From contig JAYFMW010000006.1 of the NCBI GenBank assembly GCA_042408215.1, forward strand, positions 768,001 through 832,000: a stretch of 64,000 nucleotides of DNA. The letters run 5' to 3'. The DNA is from Microcoleus sp. (lineage in GTDB: Bacteria > Cyanobacteriota > Cyanobacteriia > Cyanobacteriales > Microcoleaceae). Position 1 is the first letter of the stretch; each line of letters opens with the position of its first letter. Below are positions 6,139 to 32,447 of the stretch, piece after piece. A program made the position numbers and the translations under genes. The notes under the pieces were generated by a model that searched no databases, was not told where the DNA came from, and saw nothing but the letters and a program-made list of their open reading frames with translations.

Positions 6139-6746
6139 ATTCAGTTCCCTTATCCAAACTAGCTTGTTAAATTATTTTTATATTTATTTTTTTTCGGCTA
6201 GTATTTGCTCTGAATTTTCACCGAACCTATTAGGCGGATGCCAGCTCTTATCTAGAAGCATATATTGATATTATCAACGATAATCGCTTAAATTAGCGAT
6301 CGAACAACTAGCCACTCAACACACCCTGTAAATAATTTGGAGCAATGTGCGATGAGGTATCACACCCTTCAATCACCAGTACAACAATCAAGCAATTTGG
6401 TCTCTTGCCCCCGGATTCATCTGTGGAGACTTTAAAAAGCGTAGCATCGTTCCTAACAAGCCCCCGAATTCATTCTCCTAGCGCAGGCTGACTGACGGGA
6501 GTAATTCTCACACTTCGGCTACCCGTTCGACTACACTTCGGCTTCCCTCAGGGGGGCCCGCTTTTGTGACCGGTGATTTTCAACCCGAACAATTGTGATC
6601 TATATCACCTCCCGCAGCCTGAACAAGAGCTATAGTAGGGTAAGGGTTCAAAAAATAATAAGTGCATCTCTCCACCATTCCTATCCCCAGCCCTCGTCTG
6701 CGATATATTACCCGGTCTACTTAATCATCAAGGTTCCAGGCAGTCT

Positions 6747-6980
6747 GTAACGAGCGGGCTAAAGCCACTGAGCTTGTAAGAGCAATCGAATCAAGCTGTA
6801 CTGACCAGCTATCGTCTTAACTGACTACGTTATTTGAGTCACGACACTCCTTGAATGCGACGCTAGTTTTCCGCTCTGTCATGTACGGTTAAACAGTCTT
6901 AAAGTCACGCTCGACAGTGCCGTATGTCTAACAAGCTCTGATCGCAAAGGCGTGCGTCGCATTACCCCGCAAGGGAGGCT
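6747..6980 (+). ncRNA. HEARO RNA / IscB omegaRNA scaffold (partly degenerate near its 3' end)
   Basis: HEARO landmarks in order: GACCAGC...ACTACGTTA...GAATGC..GCTAGTT..CTCTG...GTTAAACAG...CAGTG...ACAAGC...CATTACCCCGCAAGGGAGG. Confidence 0.75.
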
Positions 6981-7176: not shown

Positions 7177-7992
7177 ATGATTCAAGAAAACAATAAAGAT
7201 GCCGACCTTTCTCAACGCCGATATACAGATACTGTGCTGGAAAAAATCCCCGTAGAAGTTAAAGATTGGGCAGAAAGCCTGCCTTGGAACCAGCGCCGTT
7301 ACCTATTGTCCCTCTGTTACATATTGTGCGCGTCCACTCCCGACTTGCAAGCAGAATTTTTAGATGACTACACCGCTGACGGCTTAATTTCAAAAATGTT
7401 TGAAGACGTAGATACTCTGCACCGAGTCAAAGAGTATTTAATCAGGTTCCGAGTCAAAAAAGAATTAAACGAATCAGATTTAAGAAGCTACATCAAACAA
7501 TTTTACATCCACTCAGCTCAACAAGCACTCCGGGAAACTGACCAGTATTTAGAATCTGCACTCCGCTTCGTCTTGAGTACAGAAGAACGCAATAATGTTT
7601 TCAACTACATTTTAGGTTTTGAATTTCTTAAGATTGTGTTTCAAATGAGCTGGCTGCAACACGAACGATTGGCTAGGCTACAAAAAAATCAGTCGCAGTT
7701 TCTTGACACCTATATCAAACCGATTCAACACGCACACAAAATTAACGGCATAATTGTACCGAAAGATGAGAAGATTTTTTTTGCTAGACGCGCTTATTAC
7801 GTTCAAATGCCTAACATTTCCAACAACAAAGTAATTGAGTTAGTTATGGCAAGTTTTAGTACAGAAATGGTGAGTAACTGCGGGTTTTCTATCAGTCGCC
7901 ACTCTCAAGCTTTGCGGTTTGACTGCGATTACATTTACCATCCCGAACCTGAAGAAGAAAGATTTCCTACGGAATTGCAATTTATTTATTGA
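7177..7992 (+). CDS. Conserved cyanobacterial hypothetical protein
   Basis: 271-aa ORF with normal composition (WAESLPWNQRRY...FLDDYTADGL...FYIHSAQ); function not recognised. Confidence 0.7.
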   Translation: MIQENNKDADLSQRRYTDTVLEKIPVEVKDWAESLPWNQRRYLLSLCYILCASTPDLQAEFLDDYTADGLISKMFEDVDTLHRVKEYLIRFRVKKELNESDLRSYIKQFYIHSAQQALRETDQYLESALRFVLSTEERNNVFNYILGFEFLKIVFQMSWLQHERLARLQKNQSQFLDTYIKPIQHAHKINGIIVPKDEKIFFARRAYYVQMPNISNNKVIELVMASFSTEMVSNCGFSISRHSQALRFDCDYIYHPEPEEERFPTELQFIY

Positions 7993-8277
7993 CAATCAAG
8001 CAATTGGGCCAGGAGCCCGCGGATTGAGCCGTGGGGTGAATTCTTCAATACGCATTTCCAGAAAAGCCTGTTTAGAAGAGGCAGGATACCTGTTTCACAA
8101 TAATTATTGGAGATGTCTAATGTAAAATCGAAAATCCATAAAACCCGGTTTCTGTGGGAGTAGAGAAAAAATTTTAACTCTGCCTTGTGGAAGATAGTCT
8201 TAATTGTTGACATACTCACCCCCGCTGAAGCAGCGGTGATTCTTGACGCTTCACTGACTGATGCTACCGAAGTAGTC

Positions 8278-9315
8278 TTACTCTGTCTCTGCGTCCTGAA
8301 GCGAGTCGTGGGTATGCCCTATCCCGACTTTTTCTATATTTTTCGCTGCATTTTCATCTCGATCGTGTTCAGTGCCACAATTCAAGCATTGAACCGATCG
8401 GATTTTTCAATCCAATTTTCCCCATTTGAAACCGCAATCCGAGCAGACTTGGCTAGTAGGTTCCCATCTGCTAACTACTTTGAACTCCCTGCCAAACTTC
8501 TCGGACTTAGCCTCACAGAGAGTCCTAAACTCTCTCCATCCTTGCTGACTAATGGCTCTTGATAATTTCCGATTCTTCACCATGCCTGACACATTCAAAT
8601 CTTCCAAAATAATAGTTTGGTTTTCACTAACAATTTTGGTAGATAATTTGTGCAGGAAATCTTTGCGGGTATCCGCAATTTGATTGTGCAGTTTAGCAAT
8701 CTGAATCCGAGTTCTATTTCTACGTTTCGAGTCTTTTTGCTGACGTGCCAACTTCTTTTGGAGTTTGCGAACTTTCCGGTCTAATTCCTTGTAGGAAAGA
8801 CTTTCACATCTCTCGCCATTGCTCATCACCGCAAAGGTTTTAATCCCTAAATCGATGCCGACACTTTGATTATTGGCTTCTACTTGGATTGGTTCAATCT
8901 CTACGACAAAACTTAAGAAATAGCGTTCGGCACAGTCTTTAATCACCGTGACAGAGCTAGGTGACGAAGGGAGATTTCTCGACCATATTGGATTAACAAT
9001 TCCAATCTTGGCTAAGTAAATACCATGATCTTTAAAGGAGAACCCTCCAATTCTAAAACGCGCCGATTGGTTATTTGTTCTTTTCTTGAATTTAGGATAA
9101 CCAACTTTACGACCTGGACGCTTTCCTTTGCAGGAGTTGAAAAAGTTTTTAAAAGCTATCTCTAAATCGGCAACTGACTGTTGCAGTGGAATATTTGAGA
9201 CCTCAGATAACCACGCACGTTCAGAGGTTAACTTAGCCTGAGTGATTACTAACTTTTGGAGTTCACTAGACTTTGGCTTTTTCCCTGACTGCTTGCAGAG
9301 AGCCTGAGCATCATT
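8278..9315 (-). pseudogene. tnpB: tnpB exon 2 (downstream of the group II intron), with a nonsense codon at 8407-8409
   Basis: NDAQALCK...GIDLG...ILEDL...CSDCG..KLD*KIRSVQCLNCGTEHDRDENAA; in frame with exon 1 after splicing. Confidence 0.88.
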
Positions 9316-9424
9316 GTTAGAGTCGATAGAGGCATTTCTACCTCTACCTCTCTTTCAGAACGGAACGTGAAACTTTCGTCTCATTCCGCTCCTCGATATC
9401 TTCATCCTTTTTTATGGACACAAT

Positions 9425-11128
9425 TCAAAACGGATTGCTATGATAGTCCTTATCAAGGGAACCGTCATTTTCCGTTTTTGTGTCGTGACAGTGCTTATGT
9501 AGAAGTTGTAGGTTTTTATATTCATCCTTACCGCCTAGTGAGCGGGGTAGGATCTGGTCAACTTCTACAATGTCTGTAGGTGTGAAGTACAGACCGCAGT
9601 GGGTACATTTACCTTTTTGTGTCTTAAGTAGTGTTGCCACTCTTGTTGATGTTTCAGGGTATTCTCCACGTCTCTTGCTCCAATAAATCCAGTCACCGTC
9701 ATCAGGTGTTGAATTGCCCTTTACCTTTACGTGCCTTGTAATAGGCGTTGCTGAGTGTTGGGCTAGTTCTAAACCTTCTTGTGTGCTGAAACACCAATTT
9801 CTGTCGCCTACTGTTCGCCAGTATTTGTCTTTATTGATGCTACCTTTTCCCCGTCTACTAGCCCAGGCTCTTAATTTGTCGTAGGTAAGATGATCTATCT
9901 TACTAAAGATTTCCTTACTTACTACTGTTGAGTAATAGTTTGACCATCCCCTAATTATTGGATTTAGCCTACTTATTAAGGCATATTGGGGGGAGTGACT
10001 ATGGGTGTCTATTACCTTTTTGATTTGTAAGAGATGAGCTTTGGTTTTTGGTTGGGACGGGGTGATTAACGTTTTAAAACCTAGTGGTATTCCTTTTGTA
10101 TTATTGGTACTTCGGTAGTTTCCTACCTTGTATTGTTGTACAGGTCATCCTAAAAAATCAAACCCTACATTTCCGTTGTATTCGTTGAGGGTGTGGGTTA
10201 ATTTTGTTTTGCTTGGCTTTAATTCTAAGCCTAAATCACTTAACCAATCCGCAATTATCTTTTGACAGGCTATTACTACTTCGATGTCTTTGTGGATAAT
10301 CACAAAGTCATCTGCAGATCGGCTTAAACTAATTTCATTTCTTTGGTCTCTGCCATTTCCAACGAATTGTTTAACCCGTTCTTCCATTCCATGAAGGGCT
10401 ATGTTAGCCAAAAGTGGAGAAATTACTCCTCCTTGTGGCGTACCTTCTGTGGTCGGAAAAATTTCACCTTGGTCTAATACCCCACTTTTAAGCCACGATT
10501 TAATTTGTTTTCTTAATCGCGGATAGGTATTGATTTTGTCAAGTAATGCTTTGTGATTAATGCGGTCAAAGCATTTGGCAATATCAGCGTCTAGCACATA
10601 TTTAGCTTTTTGCTTGATACTGGTGAAAATAGCTTCTCTTGCATCGTGACACGACCTACCTGGTCTAAAACCATATGAGTTTGGCTCAAAGAGAGCTTCC
10701 CATTCTGGTTCAAGAGCTGCTTTAACAACTGCTTGTAAAGCGCGGTCGTACATAGTGGGTATGCCTAATGGTCTTGACTCATTGGTTCCTGGTTTTGGTA
10801 TCATTACCCGACGTGTCGGTTGTGATTTGCCAGTTGCTTTGAGTTGACTTACTAGCTCAAAGCGTTGCTTCGGAGACAATAATTTAATACCATCCACACC
10901 TGCTGTACGTTGGCCAGTATTATCTTGCGTGACCCGTCGTACCGCTAATACCTTATTAGACCATGAATTAATCAAGGTCTTCTGAAGCTTCCTCACTGCT
11001 TTTACATCGCCACGCTCACTTGATCGAGAGATACGTTTTTGCAACTTGAATGTCAATCTTTCGGCTTTTCGCCAATTAATTTGATTCCATTCCACCGTCG
11101 GGTTATCCCGCGTTTTAGACTTATTCAT
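9425..11128 (-). pseudogene. ltrA: Intron-encoded reverse transcriptase/maturase with C-terminal HNH, inactivated
   Basis: RPLGIP, YGFRPGRS, GTPQGG, FDFLG, LNPIIRGW, CTHC...HNH in one frame. TGA at 10145-10147, YADD reads SADD, and the HNH D-H reads D-Q. Confidence 0.9.
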
Positions 11129-11769
11129 TGCTAAAGACAGTCCCTATCCTTGAAGTTATCGTGTATCTGTCTGCATATCTCTGTCATTACAACAGAGCAT
11201 TCGCTTCTGATACAATCCCTCTCTCATATATTATTCGTTAGCTACTTACTGGGTAATCGACCTATTTCCAGAAATATGTGAGAGTTAATTCGTTCCAAAT
11301 ACACATTGATTGAGTTTTTAGTGTGATGCTATCCACCGGGTTTATGGGCGGTGCTTATAGGTCGAGTCTGGAATCGCCTATGCCCTATCCTTGCCTTTTG
11401 GCTTGGTCTTAACCAGTCCTTACCATGTTTTTCAACGGTTTTATACTTGATTCAGCCGTTAGACCATTACGGGTTACGATGGTTCTGACACATCTTCGCT
11501 TTCGCTACACATGAACTCTTGCTCGACAGTTACCAGTTTCGGCTACCAGTGGTCTGCCTTTTATCCCCGCTTTATCCTGTTGGTTGCTATACAACAAAAT
11601 AGGGGATAGGCTTTTACCGCTGCACTTGCGGATTGGGACTAAGAATTATCTGCACCCAAAAGCGTATTTAGTTGTTATGGCTTGAGAGCCATAGCTTGTA
11701 AAAGTATAGTCATTTATTACAGTGCCGTGGGAGGCATGAAGTCCCTCCCCTTTCTTTTTTACTTCGAGC

Positions 11770-12988
11770 GGATTGACCCTTCTAAAGCTGAACTACGCAG
11801 CTCTCTATCCCATTGCACAAGGCATTTGGGATTGCTTTTCGCATAATATTGTAAGACCCATTAACATCGGCATTAATTAATTGACCGCAGGATGTTTTGT
11901 ACAATCCTCTCTTAATTAGTTGGCCACTAAATACCTTTTTTTGGGTATCACTATTCCCATAAACAGGGATCGGGTCTAGATTTAGGAAACTGGATTGAGA
12001 AGTATATGATTATTCCTGCACCATCACTCTTATTCCAACCAATACAGCCTTATATTCCAACATCTCAATTAATCGAGCATGAGGAACAGTTACGAAGTTC
12101 TGATTAGTTTTTTTTCCCAAATTAATCTCGTTTTTCCATTGTACATTTTTCCCTATTACCAGAGTCCCAATCTTTCCTGAACTTAAAAGATTGATGATGG
12201 AACGACTAGAGGAGTGCAAGTAATTATCGATTTTTTGGTTTCTACAACGAGTCAAGCGCTGAATCCTACGCGATGTTTTGCGACTCTCTTTCAATCGAGA
12301 TTGTAGCTGCACGCTTATTGTAAAATTGATTAATTGATTTCAGTGGTCGCCCGTTAATCAATAAAGGGACAAATCCCGGCTGATTTGAAGTTAGCGCCAC
12401 TAAATTATTCAATCCTAAATCAATACTAGCTACTAATTCTTTCTGATTTTCATCAATGGTGGACTCCGGCTCATCATAAATTACCTCAATTACATAAGAA
12501 TCACACTTAGGAACTAACCTAACTTGACAAATTTGCTCTGGTTTTACCAGGGTCTTAATCAAGATATTAGTCCCGGACAGATGGATAATTCCTTTCTTTA
12601 GTTGCTTGCTACTAATCGCCTGAATCGTATAGACGAGAATATTCCGACCCTTAACTTGATCTTTGTACTTGGGCAACTTTGGGCTACCAGTAAATTTTGT
12701 TGGCTCAATATTGTAAGCTTTAACGGCTTCAAAAAAAGATTTCCAATTCTTGTCTAATATCATCAAGATTTGTTGACTTACCTTGGCTGGTAAGTCCTTG
12801 TATGCTTGATGAGACTTCATCAAACGGTTCATTTCGTTGTAATTGATATAACCCCATCCATAGACAAAACTCTGACGAATAACGTAGTTAGCGACGTTGT
12901 AGAGATTTTTGGATTTAAAGGCTAATGCGTCAATTTCAACAAAACGATTCTCGGTGGATTTAATGATATGCCTCTCTGCTACTTGCAT
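11770..12988 (-). pseudogene. tnpB: Second tnpB (zinc-finger-less, NADVNG type); frameshift near 12300 and stop at 12010
   Basis: MQVAERHII...SKNLYN...SIDLGLNNL...NGRPLKSINQ / E*SYTSQSSFL...INADVNGSYNIMRK. The 3' end coordinate is approximate. Confidence 0.85.
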
Positions 12989-13931
12989 TCAGACTCTCCA
13001 TTTTTTAACAATCGCAATAATTATCTCTGTTGAGCCTTCTGACTATATGATACTACCATTGCTTACTACTGCTTACAAACTTAACAATACTCCGGACAGT
13101 TTTTAAAGAGGAATGCGATCGCAATAAAATAGAGAAGTGAAAAAAGTGAGTGCAATCTCAACCCAAAATAAACAGAAAAAAAGGCACTCTTTTAGGTTAA
13201 GCTATAAAAACACAAAAGCTCAACAGATTGCATTAGGAAGATTATTGAATCCATCTTACAACAAATGCCGGGGATTAGTCAACCCCAAAAGAAGTTTTTA
13301 ATCACTTTATTTTCAACTATTTTGCTGGCCTATGGCAAGGTCAACTTCACGAATCTCAGTCGTTATAGCTGTTTGAGTGAAAAAACCTACCGTCGTCACT
13401 TTCTCAAAAGCTTTAACTTTCCACAATTTAATCAATATTTTCTCAAAGAAGCTTTAAACCCTGAACACACAATTATTGCTGTTATTGATTGTTCTTTTTT
13501 AAGAAAAAGCGGAAAACAAACTGATGGCAAGGCTTATTTTTATAATGGTGTAGCTGGTAAATCGGAACAGGGGTTGGAAATTTCTGTAATTTCTATTGTC
13601 GAAATTGAGACTCGTTTATCTTATATAGCAACCGCCTTGGCGGTTATGGTGTAAAGTGGAAGTAGTCTCTTATCCATTATGCTGTTTACCCGAGGGCACG
13701 ACTCATGCGAAAACCGTACAGTTATGACCTACGTCAGAAAGTCATTCAAGCTATCAAACTAGATGGCTTAAAGATTAGTGAAGCGAGTATACTATTCAGT
13801 ATCAGTTGCAACACAATCAGCTTATGGTTGAAGCGACAAACGGAAACAGGAGACTTTTTAGCATTACCGAATCAGCCTCGCGGTAACGGTCATAAAATTA
13901 CTGATTGGGAGAAGTTTCGTGAGTTTGTCAA

Positions 13932-15554
13932 TTGGAGTTTAGACTAAGCAGGTCAAAAAGTGTGATCGCTGTGAGACTAGCCAACAGTTCTCAAGAACGG
14001 CAATGGTCGCTGGCGACAAACTATCAGGCTCAACCATAAGATAGATGCCAGCGACCGTTGACGTTCTCGGAGACTTGCAACAGAAAAAAAACTGTCTGCG
14101 ATAGTTTCAACAGACAGCGTAAGGGTAGAAGATTGAAAATTCAGCTAAAAATCTCACATCTACCTGCCATGAAGTTTGAACAATTACGGGAATTTCGTCA
14201 ACAAGCTTATGAATGTCTCGGCAATGCCAAAGACGCCACCTTTGAACTAGCAGACGCGATAATGACGACTCGCCACGTCTCATGTTTAGGAGATTTAGCC
14301 CTCAATCCCTTATTTCGGCGTGAGTGGTCAAGCGTCTACGAAGCACTACAAGACTGTAGACCAGACCGAGACCAATTGATGCAACTATACATCCAACAGA
14401 TTTCAGAAGTAGAACGTCCAGTATTAGCGATGGATCATACGGCATGGTTGAGACCCCATGCACGTACCCTCAAAGAACGTACTTATGAACATCAACCCAC
14501 AGCCTTACCCGACGGTATACCTGTCGGCATCGGTCAGGGATATAGTACGATCGCACTGATACCTTCGATGAGCGGGAGTTGGGCGCTGCCCTTGAGACAC
14601 GAACGTATTACCAGTTGGGATAACCCAATCGGTAAAGGCGCTCAACAATTAGCACAAGTATGTGAATATCTTCAGCATAGACCGATCGCCTTATTTGATA
14701 GTGAGTATGGGTGCGCCCCTTTGGTTAAAGCCACCGCTGCGATCGCTGCTGATAAACTAATGCGTATTCGTTCTAATCGTTGCTTATGGTCAACACCCCC
14801 AGCCTATAGTGGTAGAGGACGGCCCAAAATTCACGGTCAACAGTTTAGGCTGAACGACTCTCAAAGCTGGTGGGAACCCGAACAAACTCTGGAATCTGTT
14901 GAACCCAAACTCGGAAAAATTCGGTTAAGAAAATGGGATGACTTGCATTTTCGAGGCCGTCCCAAACATCCAATGACCTTGATTTTAGTCGAACGTTTAG
15001 AAACTGTAACGGGTCGGTTAAATAGTCAACCTTTGTGGTTAGTATGGGTTGGTATCCAAATGCCATCTCTTAATGAAATTTGGCAACTATATCTACGTCG
15101 CTTTGCCCTCGAACATTGGTATCGGTTAGCTAAACAAACCTTACATTGGACTGTGCCGAAGCTAAGCACACCAGAACAGTGCGAACGATGGAGTGATTTG
15201 ATGCCATTAGTGACCTGGCAATTATGGTTAGCTAAAGATTTAGTCAAAGAAACTCGTCTACCCTGGCAAAAGTCTCTCTCTGAATTGACCCCGGTCAGGG
15301 TTGTACAATCAATGCTTCCACTTTTAATCAGGATTGGAAGTCCGGCTGTTGCTCCGAAACGGCGAGGAAATTCAGACGGATGGCAAACAGGAAAACCTCG
15401 CACTCCAAGATGTCGGTATCCTGTGGTCAAAAAGGGTAAAGGTCGGTTTCAACACTCGTCAAAATCGATTAGTTAACCTCTCTACCTCTGTCTAAACTCA
15501 CAAAATTTACACTCAACTTCTGCTGAGTGAATTTTTGCTTAGTCTAAACTCCAA
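13932..15554 (+). mobile_element. IS701-like insertion sequence, innermost and apparently intact
   Basis: TIRs TTGGAGTTTAGACTAAGCA; TSD TTGTCAA (or 5-bp TGTCA); removal restores IS630 EFVKTHGDKT. Confidence 0.92.
14169..15476 (+). CDS. DDE transposase (IS701-like)
   Basis: Uninterrupted ORF, likely start MKFEQL; motifs MDHT, FDSEYG, YLRRFALEHWYRLAKQ. Confidence 0.88.
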   Translation: MKFEQLREFRQQAYECLGNAKDATFELADAIMTTRHVSCLGDLALNPLFRREWSSVYEALQDCRPDRDQLMQLYIQQISEVERPVLAMDHTAWLRPHARTLKERTYEHQPTALPDGIPVGIGQGYSTIALIPSMSGSWALPLRHERITSWDNPIGKGAQQLAQVCEYLQHRPIALFDSEYGCAPLVKATAAIAADKLMRIRSNRCLWSTPPAYSGRGRPKIHGQQFRLNDSQSWWEPEQTLESVEPKLGKIRLRKWDDLHFRGRPKHPMTLILVERLETVTGRLNSQPLWLVWVGIQMPSLNEIWQLYLRRFALEHWYRLAKQTLHWTVPKLSTPEQCERWSDLMPLVTWQLWLAKDLVKETRLPWQKSLSELTPVRVVQSMLPLLIRIGSPAVAPKRRGNSDGWQTGKPRTPRCRYPVVKKGKGRFQHSSKSIS

Positions 15555-17208
15555 TTGTCAAGACTCATGGGGATAAAACTCAAGTTGAAATGGCCTCACT
15601 TTGGGATGGAGAAATTAGCGATCGCACAATCTCGCGGGCTTTGAAAAAAATTGGTTTTACTCGAAAAAAAAGACCTAGGGCTACCGGGCGCGGGCTGAAG
15701 TCAAAAGGCAGGCTTTTGTAACCGAATTGTCCACCATTCCCTCGGCTCAGATTGTCTATGTTGATGAATCTGGCATGGATAATAGAGACCAGTATGATTA
15801 TGGTTGGAACCCCGTCATGCCAACGGTTTCATGCACTCAAATCAGGGCGACGTGAGGATAGGGTAAATATGATTGCTGCTCTATGTAACCAAAAAATCCT
15901 CGCCCCTTTTACCTTTGTTGGAGCGTGTAATCGAACAGTTTTTGAAATTTGGCTAGAAACTTGTTTACTGCCAACACTTGTGACAGGACAGGTGGTAGTG
16001 ATGGATAATGCCACGTTTCATAAAGGTGGCAGAATTGAGGAATTAATTCAAAGTGTAGGGTGTAAATTGTTGTATTTACCGCCGTACTCCCCAGATTTGA
16101 ACAGAATTGAAAAATGCTGGTCGTGGCTCAAAAGTCGCATCCGCAAACAATTAGATCGGTTTGATTGTTTACGTGATGCGATCGAAGATCTTCTAGAGCT
16201 TGCATCCTAACCGCCAAGGCGGTTGCTATAGCTTAAGCGTACAACAAACTCCGTCACGCCCTCAAATAAAGCCCGTGAAAAAAATGCCCAAAAACCCGAA
16301 GAATAACCGCTCAAAAAAATCTCGCAAAAACCCGGACTCTCAAAGCTCAAAGCCTGACATCACAAGAGTTGATGACTATGCACAACATTTGAAGAATACT
16401 CGTTATTTTTGCCCCACTTCTGTACGTTATTTGGTGGCTGATGGCTATTACTATCGCTCTAAATTATGGGAGGCTGTGCGGGAGTTAAATTTAGACTTTA
16501 TTGGCAAGTTAAGAGTTGATGCTAACCTACGCTATCTCTATACAGGTGAACAAAATAGACTGGGAGCTCCTCGAAAATATGATGGTAAATTTGACTCTAA
16601 TGATTTGAGTCGTCTTAAATTTGTCAAAAATCTCAACCCGGGAGTTTCATTATATACATTGGTACTCTGGAGTTGTTGTTTAAATTGCCAGATTAGTTTG
16701 GCTTGTATTTCTGAGGTTCAAGCTAACGGTAAAATCAAAAATGCGTTATTGTTTAGCACTGATATTCACCTACTGCCTGAGCAAATTCTTGAATATTATC
16801 AGGCTCGTTTCCAGATTGAATTTATTTTTCGTGATGCCAAGCAATTTACGGGATTGTCTGATTGTCAAGCTCGTCATTTACCACGGCTTGATTTTCATTT
16901 TAATGCCAGTCTAATTGCCTTAAACTTAGCTAAACATGAACTCTCTATTTGTCATTCATCTGCCAAATCGTTTGTGTTTTCTATGGCTTATTATAAACGT
17001 CTCGAATTCAATCAGCATCTACTTTCTACCTTTATTGATAAGTTAGATTTAGACCCGGATTTGATTTTAAATCACCCTAACCTTCCTTCAGTCTTGTCTT
17101 ATGGTACTCTGGCTGCTTAAAAACTGTCCGGAGTATTGAACTTAATAAAGTTTTATAATACTAGCCGTCCCTAAGTATCACTACTCATTTAGGCTAAACG
17201 AATCGCAC

Positions 17209-17298
17209 CCAGACTACCCGAACACAACCAAACAACTGAGCTAAGCTCTGTTGTTGCTGGTCGGTTGGGTAGAAGCGGTACTGATACCTAGCTTTCAT
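17209..17298 (-). CDS. tnpB: tnpB exon 1 (30 codons)
   Basis: MKARYQYRFYPTDQQQQSLAQLFGCVRVVW, followed directly by the intron GTGCG. Confidence 0.9.
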
Positions 17299-17351: not shown

Positions 17352-17525
17352 ATGCCATTCAGAAAAAAACACAAACTAGGTTTTACCAGCAAAGATCCTT
17401 TAGACAGAAATCCTATCTGCTTTAAGGTTAGAGAAGGTGTGCGAAAAAAGCTGATGGCTATCCCTGACTGGCAGAAACTACTCAGAGAGTATGTAGATAG
17501 TCTGACAGAAGAAAAGCCGTCCTGA
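17352..17525 (+). CDS. Small putative ribbon-helix-helix-like protein inside the tnpB element, divergent from tnpB
   Basis: MPFRKKHK...PICFKVREGVRKKLMAIPDWQKLLREYVDSLTEEKPS; the stop codon lies in the left-end hairpin. Confidence 0.6.
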   Translation: MPFRKKHKLGFTSKDPLDRNPICFKVREGVRKKLMAIPDWQKLLREYVDSLTEEKPS

Positions 17526-31202: not shown

Positions 31203-32447
31203 CTATTTAAGCAGATCAAAAATTGACAACTGCTTAAATTCTGGTTGGGTTGACGCTTCACGGGCTACTGCTACCTTGGCGGTAGTCTTACGTCTGCCTC
31301 CACGTCCGTTTAAAGTCTCCGAATGCCCTCCGGCGACCTTAATATTAATTGCCGCGTTAACATCTCTATCGTGAGAACTGCCACAATTAAGACAAATCCA
31401 CTCTCTAACATTTAACTCTTTTTTGCCACCGCGAAAACCACAGCAAGAGCAGGTCCCAGAAGTGGGAGTCCATCTATCAATCATCCGAAAATCACGCCCA
31501 TACATTACCGACTTAGCCTCCAACATAGTTCTAAAACTACGCCATCCTAAATCAGAAATAGCACGGGACAATTTGCGATTTTTCATCATACCTGAAACAT
31601 TCAAATCTTCTAAGACTATTGTTTGGTTTTCACGAATAATCTGAGTTGATAACTTATGCAAAAAATCGGTTCTGGTATCTTTAACTTTGGCGTGAAGTTT
31701 AGCTAATCTTTTTCTAGCTACTTCCCTTCTTTTACTCCCTTTTTGTTTTCGAGAAAGATTACGCGATAATTTTCTTAATCCTTTCAATCTTTTCTTTAAA
31801 GGTTTAGGAGATTTGATCTTTTTACCATTACTTAAAGTAGCAAAGTCTGTTATTCCTAAATCTATTCCTACAGAATTATCATTCTTAGGTAATTGTTGAG
31901 GATTAAACTCAACTACAAAACTCACAAAATATCTGTCAGCGCTATCTTTAAGAATTGTTGCTGATGATGGTTTTGCTGGCTTGCCCTGAGCGTCGAAGGG
32001 TAATTCCCTGCTCCAAATTACTTCAATTTCACCTATTTTAGCTAAGTATATTTTTCGGTTTTCTCTTAGCTGAAATCCATTCTCAGTAAATCTTGCTGAT
32101 TGCTTGGATCTACGTTTTTTAAATCTAGGCGACTTAACTTTTTTCCCCTTCCGTTTACCTTTACAAGAATTAAAGAAATTAGAATAAGCTCGATCTAAAT
32201 GTTTTAAACTCTGTTGCAAAGGTACACTAGAAACCTCTCCTAACCATTCTTTTTCCTCAGTTTTCTTGGTTTGAGTAAGTATTCTACACAAATCACTATA
32301 TGATGGTTTTTTCTCTCCTTTTATATACTGCTCTTGGCAAAAAGCTAGGGCATCGTTCCAAACTACACGACAACAACCAAACAATTTGGCTAATTGCCAT
32401 TTTTGCTGGTTAGTTGGGTAGATTCGATAGCGATATCTTAATTTCAT
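31203..32447 (-). CDS. tnpB: RNA-guided endonuclease TnpB with an intact RuvC triad
   Basis: Likely start MKLRYRYRIYP; GIDLG, LEDL, CSCC/CLNC, DRDVNAA. Confidence 0.93.
   Translation of the reverse strand: MKLRYRYRIYPTNQQKWQLAKLFGCCRVVWNDALAFCQEQYIKGEKKPSYSDLCRILTQTKKTEEKEWLGEVSSVPLQQSLKHLDRAYSNFFNSCKGKRKGKKVKSPRFKKRRSKQSARFTENGFQLRENRKIYLAKIGEIEVIWSRELPFDAQGKPAKPSSATILKDSADRYFVSFVVEFNPQQLPKNDNSVGIDLGITDFATLSNGKKIKSPKPLKKRLKGLRKLSRNLSRKQKGSKRREVARKRLAKLHAKVKDTRTDFLHKLSTQIIRENQTIVLEDLNVSGMMKNRKLSRAISDLGWRSFRTMLEAKSVMYGRDFRMIDRWTPTSGTCSCCGFRGGKKELNVREWICLNCGSSHDRDVNAAINIKVAGGHSETLNGRGGRRKTTAKVAVAREASTQPEFKQLSIFDLLK

Follow-up and report, generated by a model that had tools for sequence, protein, structure and literature searches.

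Previous work mentions introns that reside in IS605 elements of Anabaena and Nostoc (available part of Kapitonov 2016, PMC4810608), and three TeI introns of family F4 have been reported at one conserved site of the IS200-family element ISEL1 (accessible sections of Mohr 2010, PMC2882425). The group II target classes named in the accessible text of PMC4424553 are homing sites, terminators, and attC sites, to which that of PMC12584367 adds start and stop codons, targeted by the Avi.groEL clade. Here, a 64,000-nucleotide stretch of a Microcoleus sp. genome was analysed (GenBank assembly GCA_042408215.1, contig JAYFMW010000006.1, forward-strand positions 768,001 to 832,000; hereafter the window, to which plain coordinates refer), in which a group II intron interrupts a tnpB gene of the IS605 family. 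It is a decayed class IIB (chloroplast-like) intron, and the lineage to which it belongs is not specialised for tnpB. The account that we regard as probable is an ordinary retrohoming event into tnpB followed by the death of the copy; the lineage would be one that targets −10-like sequences, and the window copy a retargeted outlier that converged on RVVW/N (the slash marks the insertion point), a junction at which a distant lineage would home among tnpB copies.

On the minus strand, the intron extends from 17208 to 9316, dividing the host gene between Trp30 and Asn31. When the exons are joined at the intron boundaries, the product reads MKARYQ...GCVRVVW/NDA in frame, and splicing would restore the gene as a previous, sequence-only reading of this DNA had suggested. 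The 5' end (GTGCG, at 17208), the 3' end (AAC, at 9316), and domains V and VI, matched by the Rfam model Intron_gpII (RF00029; 9316-9393, minus strand, 63.1 bits), agree with all the hallmarks of group IIB, i.e., 5' GUGYG, domain V/VI, and 3' AY. Once nested DNA is removed, the intron measures 2426 nt, and the closest PDB match of its reverse transcriptase (RT) is 6ME0 (E 1e-69). Class IIC, marked by the lack of exon-binding site 2 (EBS2) and by insertion after a hairpin, does not fit, since EBS2 covaries with the exon.

Relatives were gathered by a DNA search (61 genomes) and by a pattern for the EBS1 stem derived from their alignment, the GTDB part comprising at least 114 stretches. Among the 266 matches, 168 with at least 25 nt of 5' exon were kept and 98 were dropped, which gave 119 distinct insertion sites among the matches listed (hereafter, listed sites). 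EBS1 (CCAGAC, 11366-11371, minus strand) lies in a hairpin loop and pairs with the last six exon bases; over the 119 listed sites the mean pairing is 5.08 out of 6, against a mean of 2.61 and a maximum of 2.93 in 2000 permutations. For EBS2 (ACCCG, 11474-11470) the corresponding values are 4.22 out of 5 (113 listed sites), 2.18, and 2.55. Both elements had been proposed in the sequence-only reading, and the covariation bears them out. Two further pairings can be added, namely EBS2a (A, 11475, contiguous with EBS2 in 11470-11475), which matches exon position −14 (T) at 90 of the 113 listed sites (permutation 49, maximum 65), and EBS3 (U, 11331), which pairs with the +1 A of the 3' exon and tracks +1 across the relatives. 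The 5' exon, corresponding to the first 30 codons of tnpB (17209-17298, minus strand), carries the intron-binding sites IBS1 (17209-17214), IBS2 (17216-17220), and IBS2a (17222), and the window copy satisfies all four pairings with a single T-T mismatch at −13. The folding of domain I that had been advised as a check places CCAGAC in a hairpin loop when 11280-11520 is folded alone; its z of −0.85 is not significant, so that the EBS assignment rests on covariation.

The usual target of the sister introns lies 12 nt behind a hexamer resembling the sigma70 −10 box. The core clade includes 38 sites and corresponds to a 54-tip node of the tree (support 1.0) minus a derived 16-tip subclade; in the RT tree (midpoint-rooted FastTree), the window copy falls within a 28-tip clade of hexamer-site introns with support 1.00. 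Among the 37 listed sister sites, TAnnnT starts exactly at −18 in 17 and within 1 nt of it in 24, which are thus located 12±1 nt downstream of the hexamer; in the remaining clades this is true of 6/59 and 8/59 sites (Fisher p 1e-4 and 4e-7, values that overstate the case, because the introns are related even though each site is an insertion of its own), and the background in the same flanks is 1.5% and 4.4%. For the sites obtained after the idea of a hexamer had arisen, the corresponding figures are 7/15 and 10/15, and the box is found at −19 in another two new ones. Core sites also show a G at −20 in 60% of cases. When AT is present at −14/−13, TA occupies −18/−17 in 15/22 core sites vs. 3/11 others. 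In a separate six-site clade, TA is present at −18/−17 in 6/6 sites. EBS1 pairing is looser in the sister clade than elsewhere (mean 4.55 vs. 5.32), and EBS2a is U at 32 of the 38 core sites while the adjacent EBS bases vary.

It might be asked whether these hexamers are promoters. On the basis of a home-made gene caller (5272 genes), 34 of the 39 core-type 3' junctions of the genus (six from other genera excluded) lie outside genes, compared with about a third of the motif positions, an excess that could also come from the purging of coding insertions. In the window genome, GnTAnAAT accumulates where the insertion site would fall 15-45 nt ahead of a start codon. The genes downstream of empty alleles are those that we take, from their translations, to be dnaK, rpaA, and recA. 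Across the 30 genomes that match best, none of the 29 distinct alleles of dnaK departs from GGTACAAT (a conservation equalled by 6 of 179 windows), and TAYAAT is retained in 29/29 rpaA alleles (76 of 262 leader windows are equally conserved). A −10 box usually occupies positions −12 to −7 of the transcript; given this geometry, IBS1 would correspond to positions +1 to +6, and the attacked strand would be the non-template one. Co-oriented starts are found from 27 to 844 nt downstream, which does not agree with the start- or stop-codon targeting of the Avi.groEL clade.

The sequence-only reading had presented the intron as a possible tnpB specialist, an idea that does not stand for the lineage of the window copy. 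None of the 37 listed sister sites (D1 about 81-90% identical) is in tnpB according to a hidden Markov model (HMM) built from 153 tnpB open reading frames (ORFs) of the window genome; the flanking exons of close homologs, a check proposed in that reading, are thus 37 unrelated non-tnpB sequences, an outcome which that reading had itself named as refuting its proposal. No second RVVW junction was retrieved by the junction pattern in 143 other genomes of the family, where the lone other match is a sister intron behind TATAAT, and no second copy at RVVW/N was found in 97 metagenome stretches. Ten RVVWN sites of the window genome are empty, including one that fits all four pairings (C6:442777). 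The empty near-cognate site of the intact tnpB at 31203-32447 (minus strand; site after 32358) is as it had been described, with a wobble in IBS1 and a mismatch in IBS2, and has an additional mismatch at −14. EBS1 and EBS2 of this lineage change very fast, the remainder being conserved: the 38 listed core sites have 34 different EBS1 sequences, and CCAGAC is found solely in the window copy among the matches listed. In the wider family, tnpB accounts for seven of the 119 listed sites, no two of them at the same position (five spanned by the HMM, one 36 nt past an HMM match, and one assigned via its empty allele). A family-wide preference for tnpB, prompted by paralogs on contigs C17 and C30, was rejected since this figure is not significant (p 0.11) when compared with the 3.4% of the window genome, about 226 loci, that tnpB represents.

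The two introns in question (C17:622600 and C30:356487 of the window genome) are related and full-length, and might act as helpers in trans; one is in the tail of a tnpB, whereas the tnpB that hosts the other follows a putative recombinase gene (IS607-like on visual inspection), and the RT of the first reads YPDD. Of two other relatives (L170 and L244, with empty alleles at C5:441971 and C7:274932 of the same genome), the first is inserted 140 nt upstream of an IscB-like ORF and the second 2 nt upstream of the start of a tnpB. A derived subclade of the sister lineage is represented by five near-identical introns of the window genome (C6:739068, C6:417823, C6:102982, C20:318719, and C30:136577) with EBS1 ATCGGA and no RT match, all behind ATATCAA-T-TCCGGT-like sites, a motif that resembles a short palindrome in the 3' flank of L095.

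The idea of a specialist stands for a separate lineage. The junction pattern matched 4 of 401 genomes of the order, i.e., the window genome, a match due to chance (L342), and the genomes G282 and G328 of another family; in a phylum-wide search (401 genomes, about half from other classes) there were three other matches, none of which is an intron. In G282 and G328, one lineage occupies eight diverged tnpB copies (five and three, respectively) at RV[VWL][WY]/N, all 8/8 copies with a 5' exon being located at the same motif and two 3' junctions reading /NDA. Its EBS1 is CCAAAC or, in one copy, CCAGAC, and its EBS2, in three readable copies, is ACCCG, ACGCG, or ACACG, changing with the exon; exon pairing is perfect in one readable copy and partial in two. 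This lineage is thus a specialist of the RVVW/N junction; occupancy is observed, and homing would account for it. The only readable RT is broken, is 66% identical to the window RT, and is far from the window copy in the tree; relatives at 78% identity or less sit at other sites, and a plasmid search with this lineage gave four partial, uninformative matches. The window copy and the RVVW lineage appear to have converged on one tnpB junction.

The scale of the phenomenon was estimated by a census of G282 and G328 with a 12-nt pattern for intron 5' ends, which occurs at 96 places (0 and 2 in controls), merging into 90 distinct candidates; 13 of them look like chance or other classes and were retained in the denominator. 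The commonest host is tnpB, holding 38 of the 90 (37 by the HMM, in sense orientation and within 45 nt; one by eye), and no antisense tnpB was found at the junction of any of the 90. Four 5' ends follow MPDHV and one GIDPGKH, which we presume to be tnpA and iscB motifs. With roughly 300 tnpB candidates per 10 Mb, the share of this gene would be 3-4%. A single lineage sits at the junction DRFDWWEMN/ in four tnpB copies recognised by the HMM, to which a short-flank variant can be added. An outside sample of 401 genomes, with matches in 36, provided 30 loci, one per genome, reduced to 25 from other genera by the removal of four same-genus loci and a flankless one; six of the 25 are in tnpB, four of them, from four genomes, directly after the motif DRDxNA. 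With hundreds of copies per genome, the conserved motifs of tnpB could represent a standing niche for many intron lineages. In G328, other lineages recur, with three copies each, at YDMHGNV[CW]E/ (L409, L413, L480) and HDKLW/ (L460, L476, L486), as specialists of other multi-copy gene families, and L175, L341, and L513 are twintrons, in which one intron has entered the RT ORF of another (YGFRPG/, LDADIAKCF).

According to the probable account, the window intron would have entered tnpB by ordinary retrohoming, the four RNA-DNA pairings fitting RVVW/N; in its lineage the RT would read T−18, A−17, and A−15, the RNA would read A−14 and T−13 through EBS2a and EBS2, and EBS1 would pair loosely. At real promoters, such an intron would land a few bases into the transcript, gain a promoter, and spare coding DNA. 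Several observations weigh against this scheme. No hexamer precedes the window copy, so the hexamer cannot be strictly required; three hexamer sites are inside ORFs (L202, L204, and L216, all from a small second clade); in 20 of the 33 intergenic cases the gene that follows has the same orientation as the intron, which is no excess over any intergenic TAnAAT (65-67%); and starts 20-45 nt away (6/33) are above random expectation (p 8e-4) but not above GnTAnAAT positions (p 0.17). The window copy pairs better with its exon than its sisters do, as would fit an occupation of the site longer than one event, and the two census genomes were chosen since they hold the RVVW junction. The missing orientation excess and the hexamers inside ORFs also speak for TAnnnT being a mere sequence preference of the RT, with genic insertions purged and promoters playing no role; the positions concerned are those read by EcI5, reported to need −18, −17, −15, and −14 (accessible part of PMC2882425). 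This explanation has a real chance of being right, although one clearly short of even: it accounts poorly for the accumulation of the motif with its G at −20 ahead of start codons, for its conservation at dnaK and rpaA, and for the constancy of EBS2a among variable neighbours, and even a pure reading of sequence would have insertion at promoters as its effect.

As regards the tnpB junction, the window copy might instead be, in line with the sequence-only reading, the relic of an unsampled sub-lineage homing among tnpB copies at RVVW/N. Reaching Watson-Crick pairing throughout EBS1, EBS2, EBS2a, and EBS3 would need many changes from AT-rich sisters, the same junction supports a specialist elsewhere, and the size of the GTDB collection, a lower bound, also favours a relic. 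Nevertheless, the lack of a second copy in the family genomes, the metagenome stretches, and the window genome itself, together with the empty, fully cognate C6:442777 and the hypervariable EBS1, makes this improbable. A transfer of EBS loops by recombination from the RVVW lineage would explain why EBS1 CCAGAC is shared with L381 and EBS2 ACCCG with L347, yet these letters are dictated by the target, the two lineages can hardly be aligned over domain I (a single 48-nt match), and the RVVW lineage was not found in the 143 family genomes; we consider it very unlikely. That introns gather in tnpB merely as abundant and dispensable DNA, with no specialisation, is consistent with the tnpB share and the non-significant count of the wider family; it is nonetheless quite unlikely, as single lineages occupy one motif in diverged tnpB copies, always in sense (eight times at RV[VWL][WY]/N, and again at DRFDWWEMN/ and DRDxNA), and 38/90 far exceeds even a 5% share. 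A retargeted outlier converging on RVVW/N is our preferred origin of the window copy. A broader proposal, whose chance we place just below even, is that one scaffold has given rise to two undescribed class IIB targeting modes, i.e., a lineage reading −10 boxes and many hyperparasites of IS200/IS605/IS607 elements, with RVVW/N reached twice independently. The former would read the sigma70 box by the RT and EBS2a/EBS2, perhaps with help from the open complex, in which the non-template strand is melted, and would insert about 6 nt into host transcripts, a mirror image of the terminator targeting of class IIC; the latter would each be locked on a conserved TnpB, TnpA, or IscB motif.

The window copy is dead, and the locus itself is wreckage. 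The intron-encoded RT-maturase-HNH pseudogene (9425-11128, minus strand) has all its domains, yet inactivated: the RT active-site motif, YADD in most sister introns, reads SADD (10318), a TGA interrupts the frame at 10147, and the HNH motif reads EVDQ (9565), so that it lacks the intact YADD and reading frame of an active mobile intron. The 3' exon (8207-9315, minus strand), comprising the remaining host tnpB and the right end of the element, has a TGA (8407-8409) in the zinc finger, ahead of the last RuvC motif. Four insertion sequences (IS) are nested in the intron, making six levels with the host, and domain I carries 5.5 kb of IS DNA. After the initial 51 nt of domain I (17158-17208, minus strand), a tnpB-only IS605-family element is inserted following GTAT in the same orientation as the intron (11691-17157, minus strand); its tnpB is frameshifted, and about a dozen genomic relatives are 85-95% identical. 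Within its left end is a DDE IS with inverted repeats (DDE_5/DDE_Tnp_1; 13085-17138, plus strand), interrupted by an IS630-family element (13624-16232, approximate ends, plus strand; near-identical un-nested copies on C27 and C30), in turn hosting an innermost DDE_5 IS (13925-15554, approximate ends, plus strand). The remainder of the intron (9316-11690, minus strand) includes domains I-VI. With a dead RT, such a load, and a stop in the host gene, the notion of the sequence-only reading that the intron hides by splicing is moot for this copy.

The locus is not an assembly artefact, because contigs of four runs from four studies (DNA-type or unlabelled; one run may be the source sample) cross the exon-intron junctions. 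Among the contigs matched to the window, neither an empty tnpB allele nor an un-nested copy was seen at the insertion site, although absence cannot be proved from contigs, and RNA runs contained less than 0.2 of the sequence words; joints that bypass the nested DNA have sides of only 20-33 letters and were set aside as probably belonging to paralogous introns. In run X3 (joint 17208-9316), L182, and G033:C254, an intron 3' end abuts an intron 5' end, as in a tandem insertion or a circle. Adjoining the host tnpB, a HEARO RNA (6743-6965; 84.5 bits with the Rfam model) precedes a 271-aa ORF (7177-7992) with no Pfam match, the two being possibly a decayed IscB/IsrB element. A 57-aa ORF (17352-17525), also with no Pfam match, diverges from the host tnpB; similar DNA follows the intron in L305.

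Introns in IS605/IS200 elements being already in print, what is new is the convergence on one tnpB site, the scale involved, and the sister lineage directed to −10-like sequences; a literature search that left most subscription papers, including Michel 2007, outside its reach retrieved no report of −10-directed insertion or of conserved tnpB junctions, and the accessible text of PMC13565253 and bioRxiv 2023.08.02.551345 had no bearing on the matter. A −10-directed group II intron, if true, would add a target class to the known ones, would solve the intron's want of its own promoter, and would provide a natural promoter-trap scaffold. With the tnpB census, the remark that RT-HNH introns invade IS605 elements, which is the route proposed for the gain of HNH by IscB/Cas9, acquires exact junctions and a measure of scale. 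The census also cautions that many cyanobacterial tnpB genes considered "fragmented" are split by introns.

The introns of PMC4810608 are likewise cyanobacterial, of RT-HNH type, and within IS605 elements; the available passage is silent on sites, EBS analysis, and counts. The TeI introns of Thermosynechococcus are also class IIB with a related RT (6ME0 being the best PDB match) and comprise families defined by EBS changes, F4 repeating the case of several copies at a conserved transposon site; however, F4 is ORF-less, and in the accessible sections of PMC2882425 tnpB is not named and the intergenic TeI sites are not tied to promoters. In EcI5 the −14 base is read by RNA through EBS2a-IBS2a (Monachello 2021, PMC8643678, available part), and the same kind of covariation is seen here, but EcI5 requires C−18 and C−17, whereas the sister clade shows T−18 and A−17, completing the −10 box. 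IStrons similarly join a self-splicing intron and tnpB in one locus (bioRxiv 2023.11.20.567912, accessible text), yet theirs are group I introns belonging to the transposon, unlike the group II retroelement invading tnpB in the window. Finally, class IIC introns and the Avi.groEL clade resemble the sister lineage in aiming at gene-expression signals rather than at one gene (accessible parts of PMC4424553 and PMC12584367); the former use hairpins and the latter start and stop codons, whereas the sister lineage is class IIB, has a full EBS2, and inserts behind a −10-like hexamer.

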